Part shown: piece after piece, positions 2,957 through 34,430 of the stretch
Position numbering within the stretch: position 1 is the first letter of the stretch
Layout: every line of letters starts with the position of its first letter
Translations under genes and position numbers: made by a program
Assembly (NCBI GenBank): GCA_018992565.1
Contig: JACVGW010000001.1
Span: forward strand, 1-36,711
DNA from: Theionarchaea archaeon
GTDB lineage: Archaea > Methanobacteriota_B > Thermococci > Methanofastidiosales > SZ-28-30
Length of the DNA stretch: 36,711 bases
Direction of reading: 5' to 3'
Notes under the pieces: generated by a model
The model's database searches: none
Seen by the model: only the letters and a program-made list of their open reading frames with translations
What the model was told of the DNA's origin: nothing

Positions 2957-3748
2957 ATGGATACAGCTGCGCTCCAGGATCTTGCCACTGCAATCAGCAA
3001 AACCTCACGAATTGTCTCTCTAACAGGAGCTGGTATCTCTGTGGCTTCTGGCATTCCTGATTTCAGGTCGGAAGGAGGATTGTGGACCCGCTATGATCCT
3101 TCACTCTACGCATCCTACTCGAGGTTTGTTGAGGACCCTTCATACTTCTGGGAGATGCACATAGAGGTCATGCATCTCATTGACAAAGCAAGGCCCAACC
3201 CTGCACACAGAGCACTGGCCCATCTAGAAGAAGGAGGCCTCCTCAAGGGTGTAATTACCCAGAATATTGATGGACTGCACCAGGATGCAGGATGCAGCAC
3301 TGTGTACGAGCTGCACGGTACCAACAGGACGTGTTCCTGCATTGCATGTGGAAGGCAATATCCAACAAGAGAGATTGCTGCTCATATGTTCAGCTTCCAG
3401 AAAAAAGACCTCATCAGAAAGATGCGTAAGGGAGATGAAATTCCCACCTGTGAATGTGGTGGATGGATAAAACCAGATGTCATCCTCTTTGGCGAGAAAA
3501 TGCCGTACGAGACTGTTATAGCTGCAGAAGAACTTGCATCGTCCTGTGAGCTTCTCCTGGTAATAGGAACAAGTCTCAACGTTCAGCCCGCTGCATCCCT
3601 ACCTTTCACTACCAAGCACAGTGGGGGCTCAATAGCCATTATCAATAGAGAACCCACCATCCTGGACAGGATAGCCGACCACATGGTTCTGGGAATGGCA
3701 GAAGAAATCCTCCCTGACCTGGTGAAAAGAGTGGGCAGTACTATCTGA
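2957..3748 (+). CDS. cobB: Sir2-family NAD-dependent protein deacylase
   Basis: GAGISVASGIPDFRS, TQNIDGLH, ELHG, Zn-binding CIAC...CECG, KPDVILFGE, GTSL and NRE motifs. TATA ttataa at 2930-2935. Confidence 0.93.
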   Translation: MDTAALQDLATAISKTSRIVSLTGAGISVASGIPDFRSEGGLWTRYDPSLYASYSRFVEDPSYFWEMHIEVMHLIDKARPNPAHRALAHLEEGGLLKGVITQNIDGLHQDAGCSTVYELHGTNRTCSCIACGRQYPTREIAAHMFSFQKKDLIRKMRKGDEIPTCECGGWIKPDVILFGEKMPYETVIAAEELASSCELLLVIGTSLNVQPAASLPFTTKHSGGSIAIINREPTILDRIADHMVLGMAEEILPDLVKRVGSTI

Positions 3749-30431: not shown

Positions 30432-31630
30432 TGAGTTCCGTTCTAAATGTACTGCAGTGCGTTGATGATCCCTCCTGGATAAGAAGACCAGGAGAAACGC
30501 AGGAGAAAGTTCTTGAGGAAATTGTTCATGAGAATGTGAGTACTCGGTTTGGGAGGGAGTACCTGTTTAGAGAGATCAGAAGTACAGAGGATTTCAGAAA
30601 GTCTGTCCCCTTTTCTATGTACTGCGATGTTGAACCCTACATACAGAGGATGATGTGTGGGGAAAACGATGCTCTGATTACAGAACACACAGCAGCCTGG
30701 ATTGAGTCCGTTGGACTCAATAAGAAGCCAAAACTGATTCCGTACACACAGGATATGGCTGGTGGGTTCAGGGATGCATTTTTGAGGTTGTTTGCTTCCA
30801 GAGCAGAAGACTGGGCATATGTTTCAGGGAATGTGATTGCTGGGCTGGAACACCCACACATGGTAAGGGGAAATCCAGCTGGGGATATACTTGCTCTGGG
30901 AAGCAGTACACTGAAATCTACCCCTGTACTGGGAAGGGTGATCACTCCCCAGTTGCCAGAATCCGAAATTGATTGGAAAAAGAGATGGAAGAGAGCTATT
31001 CAGCAAGTTTCGAGACAGAATGTGATATCTGCCATTGTTGACCCAGTGCTCTTTTTGAAGTTTTTGCGCATGGTTCAGTCGGACAATGAGACAGTTGACA
31101 TTCGTCAATTGTGGCCTGACTTCTCCTTGGTAGTAACGACTGTAAGCGCAAGGCCATTCGAGAATGTGCTCAAGTCCCTCCTGGGCCAAGTGGAGTTCCG
31201 GAGGCTGTACTGCACTGATGAGGTTGTGGTAGGTGTTCAGCTGGATGAGAAAGGTATTGTACCCTTGCTTGACCACTGTTTTCTGGAATTCATCCCGTTG
31301 AACCAGTGGAGAGAGATGGAGCTCGAAGGAGGAACCTACAGGGAATATGACTTCGACATTGAGACAATGGAGACTGCAATTCCCGGGGAAGAATATGTTC
31401 TGGTGATGACTACATCCGGCCTATACCGATATATCCCGGGAGACACAGTTGCCATGGTCGACAATCTACACATAGAGCCCACTGGATTCATTGATGAATG
31501 GGCAGTCCTTCCAGAGACAGAGATAATGCAACAGATCGTACTGCTGAGAGAAGTAGCACGAGACAGTGCTGATTCACACCAGCTGGTAGCTGTGGAGTCT
31601 GAACCCTTGAGGTATCTCTTCAGAATCTGA
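30431..31630 (+). CDS. GH3 (auxin-responsive acyl-acid amido synthetase) family protein, degenerate and short
   Basis: Q..VL..I...N.ST.FGREY.F..I....DFRK.VP...Y....PYI.R, K.IP.T, FLEFIP, GLYRY..GD. SD gaggtga before ATG 30431. Confidence 0.75.
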   Translation: MSSVLNVLQCVDDPSWIRRPGETQEKVLEEIVHENVSTRFGREYLFREIRSTEDFRKSVPFSMYCDVEPYIQRMMCGENDALITEHTAAWIESVGLNKKPKLIPYTQDMAGGFRDAFLRLFASRAEDWAYVSGNVIAGLEHPHMVRGNPAGDILALGSSTLKSTPVLGRVITPQLPESEIDWKKRWKRAIQQVSRQNVISAIVDPVLFLKFLRMVQSDNETVDIRQLWPDFSLVVTTVSARPFENVLKSLLGQVEFRRLYCTDEVVVGVQLDEKGIVPLLDHCFLEFIPLNQWREMELEGGTYREYDFDIETMETAIPGEEYVLVMTTSGLYRYIPGDTVAMVDNLHIEPTGFIDEWAVLPETEIMQQIVLLREVARDSADSHQLVAVESEPLRYLFRI

Positions 31631-31914
31631 GTCCATCCAACTACAGTGGAAGAACAATGTACGTGCCACAGCGTGCAAGAGAGAACAATACTGTGAGGGA
31701 TATATGGTCTTTCTTATAGATGTGTGCAGTCTATCGTTACAGGATTCTTATTGAGAACCCGGCAATCGGTTCCCACAAAAGTGCTTGTTATTAACTTGGA
31801 TTTTTTAATTCCTCTTAATCTCAAGGATGTTGGAGATGGGTTGCCCACACTTTCTAAGTACTAAGTAATTTACCCTAGAATGCTGGCTGTCTTGTCTTAC
31901 TATATACACTTTCT

Positions 31915-32024
31915 ACAAAGAAAGGGGGAATGAAAGAGTGGGATTGAGAACAAGACGAAGGAGGTGAAATCCATGGAAGTGGTAACTTGTTTTCTTCCCA
32001 CTCTTTGGAGTTGTTACTCCGCAT
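31915..32024 (-). ncRNA. Candidate hairpin sRNA copy 1 (anti-SD-like loop)
   Basis: Stem 31933-31954/31986-32006 around a 31-nt loop. Upstream minus-strand caaaagtttaaaaaggg (32039-32055). Pyrimidine-rich 3' end. Confidence 0.55.
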
Positions 32025-32253
32025 ATTCTTTGTCATGTCCCTTTTTAAACTTTTGCAGTATTTAATACCCGCCACATCATCATTGTTTCTGTAGTTTTTA
32101 CTCGAACCCGCAAAAAGTGCAAAAGTACCTTCCAGAAAATAGTCACGAGTATTCTTTTTTCTGGGAAAAGTCTGTGAGAAGAAGGATTGAGAAGAGTGGG
32201 GATTAAATAAACAAGACGAAGGAGGTGAAATCCATGGAAGTGGTAACTTGTTT
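31949..32253. repeat. 44-nt exact direct repeat (31949-31992 and 32210-32253)
   Basis: aacaagacgaaggaggtgaaatccatggaagtggtaacttgttt occurs twice, 261 nt apart. Confidence 0.97.
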
Positions 32254-32287
32254 ACCCACTCTCCTCAGTGTTTAACTACAGTTGCAT
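32160..32287 (-). ncRNA. Candidate hairpin sRNA copy 2 (anti-SD-like loop)
   Basis: Stem 32188-32215/32247-32267 around the same 31-nt loop. Upstream minus-strand caaagacttaaaaaggg (32299-32315). Confidence 0.55.
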
Positions 32288-32505
32288 ATTGGTGTTACCC
32301 CTTTTTAAGTCTTTGTAACGCTAATATAATCAAATTTTCGAAATTGAAATATCTGACCTATTTTGTGGTTTAAAGTACACATTATTTCACAATCAGATAT
32401 TATACCTGGATCACTCCACCTCAAAGCGATTTATCTGCTCATGACTTGAATATTCGCCTGTACCATCAGAGTTGCTCTTAACCACTATCAGAGACCTGCA
32501 TGTGT

Positions 32506-33036
32506 CTATTCCTGGACAAACTGCCATTCACACCATACATCTCCCGTATGTTCATCGGGAGGACACTTTATGCAGTTGCACATGATATGAGGGTTGATCT
32601 CTCTCGCAAAATTGGAAAGGTAGCTAAATCTCACCTGTTTACACGGGAACTCTGGAAATCCCTTCTTTAATCGGGTTAATTGTGTCCTGCAGTTGAGGAT
32701 CTTCAGAATACCTATACCATTTTCTACGGTAATGATTTTTTCGTGCTGATCAAGGGCCCAGCTCGTGTGGTGCAAAGCATTCATGAGAGTAGTGACAGAA
32801 AAATCTTTCATGTTCAGGATGCCTTTGAGGGCCTTTGCCTCAAGGGTTCCCATGATATTCCACACTTCAGCATCAATTTCTGCCGCGGCCTCTGTGCCAA
32901 ACCGGTTCTCAATACCAAGGAAGTACAACCCATCTACTCTCCAAATATTCCGGTTATTGAACATCATGATCTCGATCAGCTTGTCTTCAGGTAATGCTTC
33001 CAGCATGTTTCTATCTTCGTCACTGACGTATGACAT
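32506..33036 (-). CDS. DUF6125-like protein
   Basis: WRVDGLYFLGIE.RFG.EAA.EID..VW; CRTQ..R.KKG..EFPCK; C.KCPPDEH...WCEW. SD aggtggtga supports start 33036 (ORF is open from 33069). Confidence 0.7.
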   Translation of the reverse strand: MSYVSDEDRNMLEALPEDKLIEIMMFNNRNIWRVDGLYFLGIENRFGTEAAAEIDAEVWNIMGTLEAKALKGILNMKDFSVTTLMNALHHTSWALDQHEKIITVENGIGILKILNCRTQLTRLKKGFPEFPCKQVRFSYLSNFAREINPHIMCNCIKCPPDEHTGDVWCEWQFVQE

Positions 33037-33131
33037 TGAGTCACCACCTGTGGCTCCACCCTTCACCATATAAGTGTTGCCCTCTTAGCCTCTCAACCGA
33101 GTCTGAACAGGTCAATTGAAGGGAGTGCACG

Positions 33132-34430
33132 TCACAGCCCACCCCAGGCTGCAGCATGCTGTCTCCACTGCGGAAATCGCCGTGGGTCCTTTGGATACCG
33201 ATCATAGATAGCTCTCAAAATGCTCATTCTACCCACAGCACGTCCAAGCTTGAAAAGGAGGGACGGATTTCTTGCTGCATTGGCCGCTGTGGTCAAGATG
33301 GTCTTCAAAGTGTAGGAGGGTTCGTTTTCTTCCAGCTCATACAGCACTTCATCGGTAATGACATTCTGCAGCAGTAATTTGAGTTCCTTAACTGAGAGAG
33401 ACACCATGAAATCTCTCAGAGGTAGTAGTGATCCAAAAATCCTCCCAAATTTCTGCATGAAATCATAGTTGTACTTCCACAGAGCCGCCACAGAGACATC
33501 CTTGCGGCGAATTGCCTCCACTGCCGTTGTGACTGCCATATGTCCTGCATTCAGGGAGGGAGCTATTCCCTCTCCCGTGAGAGGATTTGCTTGCCCCGCA
33601 GCGTCACCACACACCAGCAGGCCTGGCGCCACCATGGAAGAAAGAGGAGCTCCCAGAGGAAGAGCACCATAGCCCGTGCTATTCTTTTCCTTGACCCTGA
33701 AACACGGATAGGATTTCAAAACCTGATTCACTGCCTTCCTAAAAGGAGCACAATGAAGTGCCATTCCCCCGGCCCCCACATTCAGTTCACACTTGCCCTT
33801 GGGAAAGAACCAGAAGTACCCTGAAGGCACAATAGAATTATCAAAAATGATGGCGGCATATTCCTTGGGAATTGGCTCTTCCAGAATGACGTTCTCCTTG
33901 TATCCCAATCCGATAGATGACGAGCTGCCAAGTCCCTGCCAGAGTCCCCTGCTGAGAGCGGAGAAAACACCGCTGCAATCCACGGTTAATGTCCCGTAAT
34001 AGGACCTGCCATGGGTCTTAACGCCATGCACTCCATTTCTCCATACAGGCCCCGTTACAACTTCATGGCAGAATTCTGCACCTCTTCTGAGAAGTTCCTT
34101 CATCATGACTTGCCCAAATTGCCATCTGTCAATAGTGCACAGGGGATCCCTCACTCGAGCTACGCCCTGCGTACTGTCTACATATCCAGAGAGGGTGCAA
34201 ATCTCCAGACCTTTCAAGGAATAATAATCAAGAGAAATACTGAATTCTTTCTCAAGCCACTTCACCATCTTCAATGGTGCTAGCTCTCCACATATCTTCC
34301 TGCCAACGAATTCGCTCTTTTTTCGCTCAATAATGCAGACGGTCAGGTCTTCCTTCAACGCAGTTAACCCAGCTGCTGCTCCTGCCATTCCGCAGCCTAC
34401 AATTATGAGATCATATGAGTCCTTCGTCAT
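33132..34430 (-). CDS. Geranylgeranyl reductase-family FAD oxidoreductase
   Basis: YDLIIVGCGMAG, KICGE, PSGYFWFFPKG (PxxYxWxFP), GDAAGQANPLTGEGI. Confidence 0.88.
   Translation of the reverse strand: MTKDSYDLIIVGCGMAGAAAGLTALKEDLTVCIIERKKSEFVGRKICGELAPLKMVKWLEKEFSISLDYYSLKGLEICTLSGYVDSTQGVARVRDPLCTIDRWQFGQVMMKELLRRGAEFCHEVVTGPVWRNGVHGVKTHGRSYYGTLTVDCSGVFSALSRGLWQGLGSSSSIGLGYKENVILEEPIPKEYAAIIFDNSIVPSGYFWFFPKGKCELNVGAGGMALHCAPFRKAVNQVLKSYPCFRVKEKNSTGYGALPLGAPLSSMVAPGLLVCGDAAGQANPLTGEGIAPSLNAGHMAVTTAVEAIRRKDVSVAALWKYNYDFMQKFGRIFGSLLPLRDFMVSLSVKELKLLLQNVITDEVLYELEENEPSYTLKTILTTAANAARNPSLLFKLGRAVGRMSILRAIYDRYPKDPRRFPQWRQHAAAWGGL

Follow-up and report, generated by a model that had tools for sequence, protein, structure and literature searches.

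The DNA analysed here, called the window, is a stretch of 36,711 nucleotides (nt) from a Theionarchaea archaeon (contig JACVGW010000001.1 of assembly GCA_018992565.1, positions 1 to 36,711). Towards its end, at 31915-32315, it carries two hairpin units in tandem, which belong to an RNA family of Theionarchaea outside the described families. Judged from sequence and comparison, which supply their gene anatomy, strand, structure, conservation and presence in RNA libraries, the units are two non-coding RNA genes on the minus strand, each with a predicted strong archaeal promoter of its own and an oligo-T end. Each RNA would be essentially one long hairpin that holds a single-stranded loop of about 30 nt open, and this loop mirrors what would be an ideal site for starting translation in this organism: AAGGAGGUGAAA, a short spacer, and AUG. 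The reading that we prefer, at a probability of about 0.5, is that these are trans-acting small RNAs (sRNAs) whose loop covers the Shine-Dalgarno (SD) and start-codon regions of messages and lowers their translation.

The two units share an identical core of 44 nt (AACAAGACGAAGGAGGTGAAATCCATGGAAGTGGTAACTTGTTT, at 31949-31992 and 32210-32253). None of 100 dinucleotide-preserving shuffles of the sequence yielded such a pair, the chance expectation being 0. The stems around the core have diverged between the copies and still pair; both the core and the paired flanks are as the original prediction, made from the letters of the window, had described them (Table 1). On the minus strand, the outer stem of unit 2 is an unbroken helix of 13 bp with one G-U pair, at which the plus strand has an A-C mismatch. 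The loop was unpaired in the minimum-free-energy and centroid folds of both strands and both units, with Z-scores of -2.6 to -3.5. It contains an anti-SD sequence, UCACCUCCUU, an anti-start CAU within the palindrome UCCAUGGA, and a second anti-SD-like block, CCACUUCC.

Table 1. Coordinates of the two small RNA units in the window (BRE, TFB recognition element)
Feature	Position	Strand	Remarks
Predicted small RNA 1	31917-32022	-	About 100-106 nt; ends inferred from the TATA-to-stem spacing of 24/24 family members
Small RNA 1, predicted start	G at 32019-32022	-	About 22 nt downstream of the TATA box
Small RNA 1, predicted end	Within CCCCCUUUCUUUG (31923-31917)	-	
Unit 1 hairpin	31933-32006	-	Outer stem aaagagtggga (31933-31943) / tcccactcttt (31996-32006); inner stem gagaacaag (31946-31954) / cttgttttc (31986-31994)
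Unit 1 open loop	31955-31985	-	31 nt; RNA UUACCACUUCCAUGGAUUUCACCUCCUUCGU
Unit 1 BRE/TATA box	32040-32055	-	CAAAAGTTTAAAAAGG; minus-strand box caaaagtttaaaaagg (32055-32040)
Inter-unit spacer	32023-32165	-	Present in RNA-library contigs
Predicted small RNA 2	32166-32285	-	About 111-125 nt; start near 32279-32290
Unit 2 hairpin	32188-32267	-	Outer stem tgagaagagtggg (32188-32200) / cccactctcctca (32255-32267); inner stem taaacaag (32208-32215) / cttgttta (32247-32254)
Unit 2 open loop	32216-32246	-	31 nt; identical to unit 1 loop
Unit 2 BRE/TATA box	32300-32315	-	CAAAGACTTAAAAAGG; minus-strand box caaagacttaaaaagg (32315-32300)

Further copies were sought in the genome and its relatives, where G000 denotes the window's genome (154 contigs, 88% complete), G002 and G003 the other two genomes of the genus, and G001 a sister genus without the RNA; the three genus genomes are assembled to 84-91%. 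BLAST and a loop model based on sequence only gave nine copies, in all three genomes of the genus, at 41-55 bits. By BLAST, G000 has two (the window pair only), G002 has four (one syntenic tandem pair and two of another type), and G003 has three (a tandem pair and a single unit). The G002 orthologue of unit 1 is 100% identical over 31927-32055. Among 133 genomes of the class, the loop model returned the same nine copies and no more distant member; the next best match scored 18.8 bits, and since nothing lies between 41 and 18.8 bits, there are no half-diverged loops in those 133 genomes. No copy was found in the family's other genus or in 30 further genomes of the order. Metagenomes were searched with an exact loop pattern having four open positions, which fixes 25 positions of the loop; it matched 43 metagenome loci and five loci of genome collections, all five in the metagenome-assembled genomes G002 and G003. 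The copies total 64, of which 48 are distinct. The pattern was absent from viral contigs (IMG/VR), and BLAST of plasmids and phages found nothing.

These copies fall into three classes, A, B and C, which have nothing detectable in common except the loop. The stem is GAGAAGAGUGGGA/UCCCACUCUUCUC in class A, to which the window units belong, GCAGAGGGUCUGC/GCAGACCCUCUGC in class B, and GUGGGAGAUCUGG/CCAGAUCCCCAC in class C, which occurs in G002 only and has one to three changes in the loop. Over 38 distinct units, 21 loop columns were invariant and seven nearly so. Of these, 25 were fixed by the search pattern in the metagenome copies but not in the nine genome copies, which came from BLAST or the loop model, and columns outside this pattern (A before CCAC, CGU after CCUU) were still 90% or more conserved. 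The class B stem, with 13 pairs over 21 distinct rows, has standard pairs in 98.9% of its 267 cells, and five pairs have changed on both sides, which was reached by one of 500 shuffles; none of 500 reached the covariation score. Sliding the partner by one to three columns reduced pairing to 39-54%. The outer 10-bp core stem of class A varies little, and all of its 170 cells (17 distinct rows) pair in the minus-strand RNA; the inner stems have been swapped between lineages (ACAAG/CUUGU, AAAA/UUUU, AAUA/UAUU) or are absent. Enclosing stems of 10 bp or more were present in each of the 42 distinct units with complete flanks. The prediction of an invariant anti-SD and anti-AUG loop with compensatory changes in its stems is supported in relatives, on three different scaffolds.

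None of this corresponds to a known RNA family, as had been suspected from the sequence. With Rfam 15, the best matches in the window at 31000-33200 had E-values of 2.1-7.8, far under the gathering scores, and the nine class B and C loci analysed gave only 5S rRNA, tRNA and two chance miRNA matches. By-eye inspection revealed no H/ACA, C/D or K-turn box motifs. Among the matches listed, published papers naming Theionarchaea had no non-coding RNA topic in their titles or abstract openings, and full-text searches of the literature for anti-SD mimic sRNAs likewise listed nothing relevant.

The stems also indicate the strand. With the minus strand read as RNA, 264 of 267 class B cells pair, compared to 240 of 267 with the plus strand, 26 cells pairing on the minus strand only and two on the plus strand only; these cells are not independent events, but the class B G-U pairs are spread over six columns. 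In class A, the corresponding numbers are 170 and 165 of 170 cells, with five minus-only and no plus-only cells. Neutral decay of a DNA palindrome should produce both kinds of cell equally.

Promoters and ends agree with this strand. Both minus-strand BRE/TATA boxes that the original prediction had placed before the window units are present, and in 24 of 24 distinct stand-alone class A units the same type of box, CAAAnnTTTAAAA, is invariant on the minus strand, 32-41 nt before AGAGUGGG. An aatatgc motif shared by the window units had been proposed to mark the start site; it is not conserved in the family, and the motif conserved around the expected transcription start in the alignment of 24 full-length class A units is AAACAC. 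The minus-strand order in these units is the CAAAnnTTTAAAA box, AAACAC, the hairpin and a T-run. U-rich 3' ends, also predicted, hold for the family at large, with four or more T within 30 nt after the stem in 23 of 24 stand-alone units; the exception is unit 1 of the window itself, where CCCCCUUUCUUUG offers two T3 runs only and the G002 orthologue has T6. In unit 2, the first minus-strand T4, at 32169-32166, makes a weak terminator (U4 only). Past the T-run the 24-unit alignment shows no sequence conservation, and no conserved plus-strand promoter was seen in it by eye. The two promoters before the G000 16S gene read cgAAAcgTTTAAAAg and have the same box form as those of the small RNAs.

RNA libraries contain the locus. 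Contigs of three metatranscriptome runs of one study, at least 99% alike, cover 31963-32100, 32027-32163, 32082-32290 and 32179-32279. Within the 1.8 kb at 31300-33100 they cover 31963-32290 only and leave the flanking genes uncovered, although a gap in the cover does not show that a part is silent. Of a fourth run, which belongs to a different study, the contigs reach only part of the GH3-like gene. The contigs break at the 44-nt repeat, as de Bruijn assembly would give, and they stop at 32279 (X1) and 32290 (X3), short of the TATA box of unit 2, which fits a minus-strand start there. That the spacer is bridged fits the weak U4 terminator of unit 2 and read-through into unit 1, so the spacer transcript is probably read-through from unit 2. 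In one insert, the contig 32027-32163, which has an adapter at either end, read 1 lies on the plus strand; in a dUTP-stranded library this would mean minus-strand RNA. The original prediction had proposed a strand-specific test of transcription; the contigs show presence in RNA libraries but give neither strand nor transcription start site. Taken with the promoter, the T-run and the lack of a conserved peptide (below), the contigs mark the units as independent transcription units. We are highly confident that they are real minus-strand structured RNA genes, and a family of independently promoted sRNAs, predicted at about 100-120 nt, is borne out at about 100-125 nt.

Could the plus strand be the functional one? 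Its loop is an ideal start region, which might be displayed, SD and AUG together, as a ribosome decoy (an alternative raised with the original prediction), as a standby site or as the start of a small open reading frame (ORF). Both strands fold, the plus strand has T5/T6 runs that are possible terminators, and contigs cannot discriminate between strands. Yet the G-U pairs of the stems favour the other strand, the minus strand alone has a conserved promoter and T-run, a conserved peptide is absent, and the read 1 of the single insert would again point to minus-strand RNA in a dUTP-stranded library. We consider a plus-strand function very improbable.

An element acting at the level of DNA, either a repeated inverted repeat such as a miniature inverted-repeat transposable element (MITE) or an operator for a winged-helix protein, is already unlikely, and we give it next to no weight. 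It would account for the unit being an inverted repeat with a central palindrome (TCCATGGA) and for the class B and C copies adjoining winged helix-turn-helix genes. The arms vary while the centre is fixed, however, which is the reverse of a MITE; there are only two to four copies per genome, in the same position between GH3-like and DUF6125 genes across lineages; the changes in the arms preserve RNA pairing, including strand-specific G-U pairs; the winged helix-turn-helix homologues of G000 have no upstream element; and plasmids, phages and viral contigs yielded nothing. Variable arms, a fixed centre, few and syntenic copies and absence from mobile DNA thus keep the family apart from MITEs, for which target-site duplications were not looked for.

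Coding capacity does not explain the conservation. From the loop ATG, the plus strands of the window units encode peptides of 30 and 13 amino acids (aa), the divergence of which had been taken as a sign of non-coding function; across the family the corresponding ORFs range from 5 to more than 40 aa with only MEV(V) in common, and the peptides are unconserved. The 3' arm is read in three frames, giving PTLL, PLF and SHSS in class A, and PSA, DPL and TLC in class B. Relatives have no conserved plus-strand ORF of the kind that, according to the original prediction, would have marked the units as decayed gene starts.

The same observations bear on the idea that the RNA is antisense to one gene, either in the manner of a type I toxin-antitoxin system, which the original prediction had entertained, or towards a trans target beginning with aaggaggtgaaatccATGGAAGTGG, class C then being the target message. 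Class C (G002 C1 and C11) has the loop and inner stem in common with the window units, and it carries a short Cys-rich ORF, MEVVTC[YC]CFGPDPHL, as well as plus-side TATA-like boxes. However, BLAST of the unit against the three genus genomes found hairpins only and no fully complementary target; because all 42 complete units have stems of 10 bp or more, none of them is a plain gene start or a fully complementary target, and no stem-less complementary target was present among the 64 occurrences from the three genomes and the metagenome scan. For the assembled 84-91% of the genomes, the lack of a stem-less copy removes both the type I antitoxin and the single perfect trans target. In addition, the plus-strand peptides vary in frame and length, the 24-unit alignment shows by eye no conserved plus-strand promoter, class C is missing from the G000 and G003 assemblies, and conserved ORFs follow class C on the minus side, as they do class B. 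An antisense to a single gene is therefore already largely refuted, and we hold it to be highly improbable. Nor do the units qualify as a type I toxin-antitoxin system proper: their ORFs use three frames and differ widely in length (5 to more than 40 aa), and no conserved plus-strand promoter was seen by eye.

Trans-acting repression of translation is the best reading because the loop mirrors the organism's strongest start regions, AAGGAGGUGAAA..AUG. In G000, GGAGGTG occurs 585 times, and for 157 of these occurrences an ORF of at least 60 aa starts 2-12 nt downstream. The commonest spacings to the start are 5 nt (61 cases) and 6 nt (27 cases), the mirror image of the loop having 6. Around the motif, the two preceding and the three following positions are most often A. 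The 12-mer AAGGAGGTGAAA has nine G000 sites outside the hairpins, at least seven of them before a nearby start codon (ORF of 30 aa or more). Starts sharing 11 nt or more with the mirror image of the loop include paralogous genes of secreted appearance; about six of these open with a signal peptide and SVDY.F, and SPL(F/Y)..RME is present in three. On such starts the loop can form 11-14 contiguous base pairs, compared to eight for the 16S tail. The 5' half of the loop, through CCACUUCC, could also pair with GGAGGUGG via one G-U, and the centre UCCAUGGA is both antisense to ..UCC AUG GA.. and self-complementary. The units have what an RNA directed against ribosome-binding sites (anti-RBS) would need: an open loop, covarying stems, and a mirror of AAGGAGGUGAAA..AUG that is found at real starts.

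From this we infer the pairing, the messages and the effect. The loop would pair in trans with the SD and start-codon regions of strongly SD-led mRNAs, its duplex of 11-14 bp, compared to 8 bp for the 16S tail, would keep the small subunit off and so lower translation. In relatives, the same loop module is also built into longer transcripts before winged-helix regulator genes. The longest gene-start match to the mirror image of the loop lies at C133:20596 of G000, a strongly promoted and strongly SD-led ORF of 32 codons (MKFNVKKVESVSTTAVAPAAKNPWKETKAQCL), and consists of 14 nt, AAGGAGGTGAAATC, followed by ATG; an equal 14-nt match occurs at C13:10001, inside a gene.

Several observations weigh against repression of this kind. 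No target mRNA was found for the loop. Its 5' half, CCACUUCCAUGG, is as invariant as the anti-SD half, which pairing with consensus starts fails to explain, and codons 2-3 of the SD-led genes vary (AAA 23, AGA 13, GAA 10 of 157). The AAGGAGGTGAAA 12-mer is found six times in G001, which lacks the RNA, compared to nine, nine and three non-hairpin copies in G000, G002 and G003; being equally frequent without the RNA, it gives no sign that start regions and RNA evolved together. In a whole-genome scan of duplex energy with the loop, long interrupted duplexes dominated and gene starts were not singled out. Well-studied antisense RNAs have short kissing loops, which an open loop of 31 nt does not resemble. 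Finally, the metatranscriptome runs, all of one study, are contigs without strand or ends and were picked for containing this stretch. The neighbouring genes do not stand out as targets either, the start regions of the GH3-like and DUF6125 genes showing ordinary or weak SD complementarity.

The likeness of the loop to 16S rRNA suggests other functions. The original prediction had pointed out that the minus-strand loop contains a sequence nearly identical to the 16S 3' end, and this was verified in G000: the 16S gene ends in ...GGCUAGAUCACCUCC (tail GAUCACCUCC) followed by AAUUCCAUGGA, the spacer directly after the gene being AAUUCCAUGGACUC, and loop and tail share UCACCUCC. The relatives of the order whose 16S ends were read have the same tail, GAUCACCUCC. 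Two blocks, UCACCUCC and the 9-mer UUCCAUGGA, are common to the loop and the end of pre-16S, though in the opposite order. In L082 (C127 of G000), the pre-16S trailer has the sequence AAUUCCAUGGACUCAAACACC, of which UGGACUCAAA forms the processing stem with UUUGAGUCCA in the 5' leader; two tandem cgAAAcgTTTAAAAg promoters precede the leader (2969-3250) and a tRNA-Ala gene follows the trailer.

One such function would be that of a decoy titrating a protein that binds the 16S tail, either a late maturation factor of the small subunit (Nob1 or Dim2/Pno1 type) or an RNase; we hold this possibility to be doubtful. It is consistent with the joint presence in the loop of the tail UCACCUCC and the trailer UUCCAUGGA, with the other, unrelated trailers of 16 relatives of the order that lack the RNA, with promoters resembling those of rRNA, and with the invariance of all of the approximately 30 loop positions, which points to recognition by a fixed partner more than to loose pairing with a large number of mRNAs. 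But the two shared blocks stand in opposite order, the match to the tail was noticed after the fact, a readable 16S 3' end comes from only one of the genomes holding the family (the G002 and G003 assemblies lack it), and no candidate protein gene travels with the stand-alone units, the neighbours of which are the GH3-like and DUF6125 genes. The loop had no advantage over shuffled loops in pairing with the leader or trailer of pre-16S (372 and 621 of 1,000 were as good), and against the rRNA operon ungapped runs reached 11 bp with G-U allowed, approximately the estimated chance level. More generally, a copy of the 16S tail joined to a CAU resembling the initiator anticodon might serve either as a global sponge for SD starts or as a decoy for factors of the pre-16S 3' end, a suggestion that we make tentatively, at low odds. 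As a sponge driven by rRNA-type promoters, it would set the translatable share of the pool of strongly SD-led mRNAs, largely for secreted proteins. In either case, the module would have been copied onto varied stems and regulator leaders because its sequence, like that of the 16S tail, cannot change.

Alternatively, the partner of the loop might be another RNA or a second loop, through kissing of the palindrome UCCAUGGA, the RNA then acting as a dimer, sponge or scaffold. The loop-loop duplex reaches -13.2 kcal/mol, with eight of 1,000 shuffles as good, tandem pairs occur at no fewer than five loci or lineages (the window, G002 C12, G003 C24, L040/L049/L064 and L046/L054), and the inter-unit spacer is bridged by RNA-library contigs. 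Single units are as common as pairs, however, start regions apart, the genome yielded no further complementary RNA, and the palindrome may be a by-product, because any antisense to ..UCC AUG GA.. contains it. We regard a loop partner of this sort as improbable. Repression in trans at start regions remains the reading that we prefer.

The genomic setting differs between classes. Most class A units sit between the GH3-like ligase gene and the DUF6125 gene, in the window, both sister genomes and many metagenome contigs, downstream of the DUF6125 gene and convergent with the GH3-like gene. The window units do not lie where a cis-regulatory leader or riboswitch would: on the minus strand, each terminates at a T-run, with the convergent GH3-like gene facing it by its 3' end. 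The other class A locus is always a tandem pair and adjoins a gene read by eye as MvhD-like. Class B hairpins share the strand of HxlR/PadR-like winged-helix genes and precede them by 25-170 nt, within a larger non-coding region that is conserved. Class C is found ahead of three short consecutive ORFs, of which the last has a weak winged-helix match. No such hairpin was found upstream of the two winged-helix homologues of G000. As far as the sequences tell, then, the loop module occurs both as a stand-alone RNA and within longer transcripts. In another family of the order, the DUF6125 locus has a different conserved leader and not this RNA.

Other conserved elements were observed around these loci. 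A block of about 40 nt (CATATTTTTGGnTTGCGAAAAnnTGATCAAATAAAT, minus strand; 32320-32375 in the window) lies directly upstream of the small-RNA BRE/TATA box and recurs at homologous positions of the DUF6125-adjacent class A units; it could bind a regulator of small-RNA transcription. Between the DUF6125 stop and the small-RNA promoter, the minus strand at 32340-32405 has the arms AATATCTGA / TCAGATATT of an inverted repeat, about 35 nt apart. The DUF6125 transcript may end at this repeat, the Rfam match of which is weak and at chance level (SpF36, E 3.4). Among the class B metagenome loci (L041-L080, e.g. L043 and L067), those of classes B1 and B2 have a purine block, (CAUG)GAGGUGGGGGAG, which follows the hairpin on its 3' side after 12-16 nt. 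Some 60-80 nt further on comes a CUCCCCCACCUUC tract that is complementary to this block, with a joint change of GAGGGUGGGGGA and UCCCCCACCCUC in L076, so that GAGGUGGGGGAG/CUCCCCCACCUUC forms a long-range helix in the leader of the HxlR/PadR-like gene, a leader that also has a TATA-like box. The motif ATCTTTCACCCCC adjoins a GC-rich hairpin at no fewer than five G000 loci (C138:28118, C127:6345, C8:20202, C154:32600 and C81:1277), at least two of which have a TATA-like box, and in metagenome contigs the motif also accompanies class B hairpins, at a distance of about 150-200 nt. These loci may represent another small-RNA or leader family. In genus g5 of the same order (L134-L149), a conserved promoter-like box and, after it, a structured leader, GGGGGAGAG...ACCCUCCUUUAUGUCC...CUCUCUCCUCC, lie about 250-400 nt downstream of the DUF6125 gene; the leader is conserved in the 10 genomes examined, precedes a gene read by eye as a PaaK/GH3-like ligase, and has no Rfam match. 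In G002 C11, 5S rRNA and tRNA genes (L025 76-272) lie 1.2 kb from the class C hairpin, with a DNA methylase fragment on its other side.

Archaeal regulatory RNAs with a known mode of action are few, and we know of none described for Theionarchaea. The present family offers a clear gene anatomy, an invariant functional module on interchangeable scaffolds, and presence in public RNA libraries. If it is true that the loop acts on many messages, the family would be a simple global brake on initiation copied from the ribosome's own recognition sequence, and the predicted competition with the 16S tail for the strongest starts is open to in vitro study, using ribosomes from relatives that are in culture.

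Among known systems, the C/U-rich loop sRNAs of Firmicutes (RsaE/RoxS, LhrC and RNAIII type) use unpaired pyrimidine motifs to target the SDs of several mRNAs; sibling or tandem copies are common, and the seeds, UCCC or CCCC, are 4-8 nt long and often carried by several small loops. The family described here is archaeal and of unrelated sequence, and has one very large loop that is a full anti-start region. Type I antitoxin RNAs (hok/sok type) are small antisense RNAs over the SD and start of a short hydrophobic ORF, whereas here no toxin ORF and, by eye, no plus-strand promoter is conserved and frames differ between copies. The 16S tail itself resembles the loop in that both contain UCACCUCC, would pair with mRNA GGAGGUGA and are invariant, as is expected of sequences that must fit many partners; in the loop, however, complementarity is extended on both sides (AAGGAGGUGAAAUCC) and includes an anti-start codon, and the sequence is carried by an RNA of about 100 nt and not by the ribosome.

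The closest likeness is with Methanosarcina mazei, where sRNA41 and loop 2 of sRNA154 are described as having anti-RBS sequences, with masking of the RBS and repression of translation proposed (PMC5867862). These too are archaeal, independently transcribed RNAs whose stem-loop exposes an anti-RBS, possibly acting on several messages (PMC5867862). The likeness is one of kind, and the present RNAs differ in a loop of about 30 nt that mirrors SD, spacer and AUG, in two anti-SD-like blocks, and in three unrelated stems. By kind, then, the family is one of anti-RBS small RNAs as in Methanosarcina, and it lies outside every RNA family described in Rfam. What distinguishes it is one large loop spanning SD, spacer and start, with two anti-SD blocks and a palindrome, kept invariant on three covarying stems and preceded by rRNA-type promoters.

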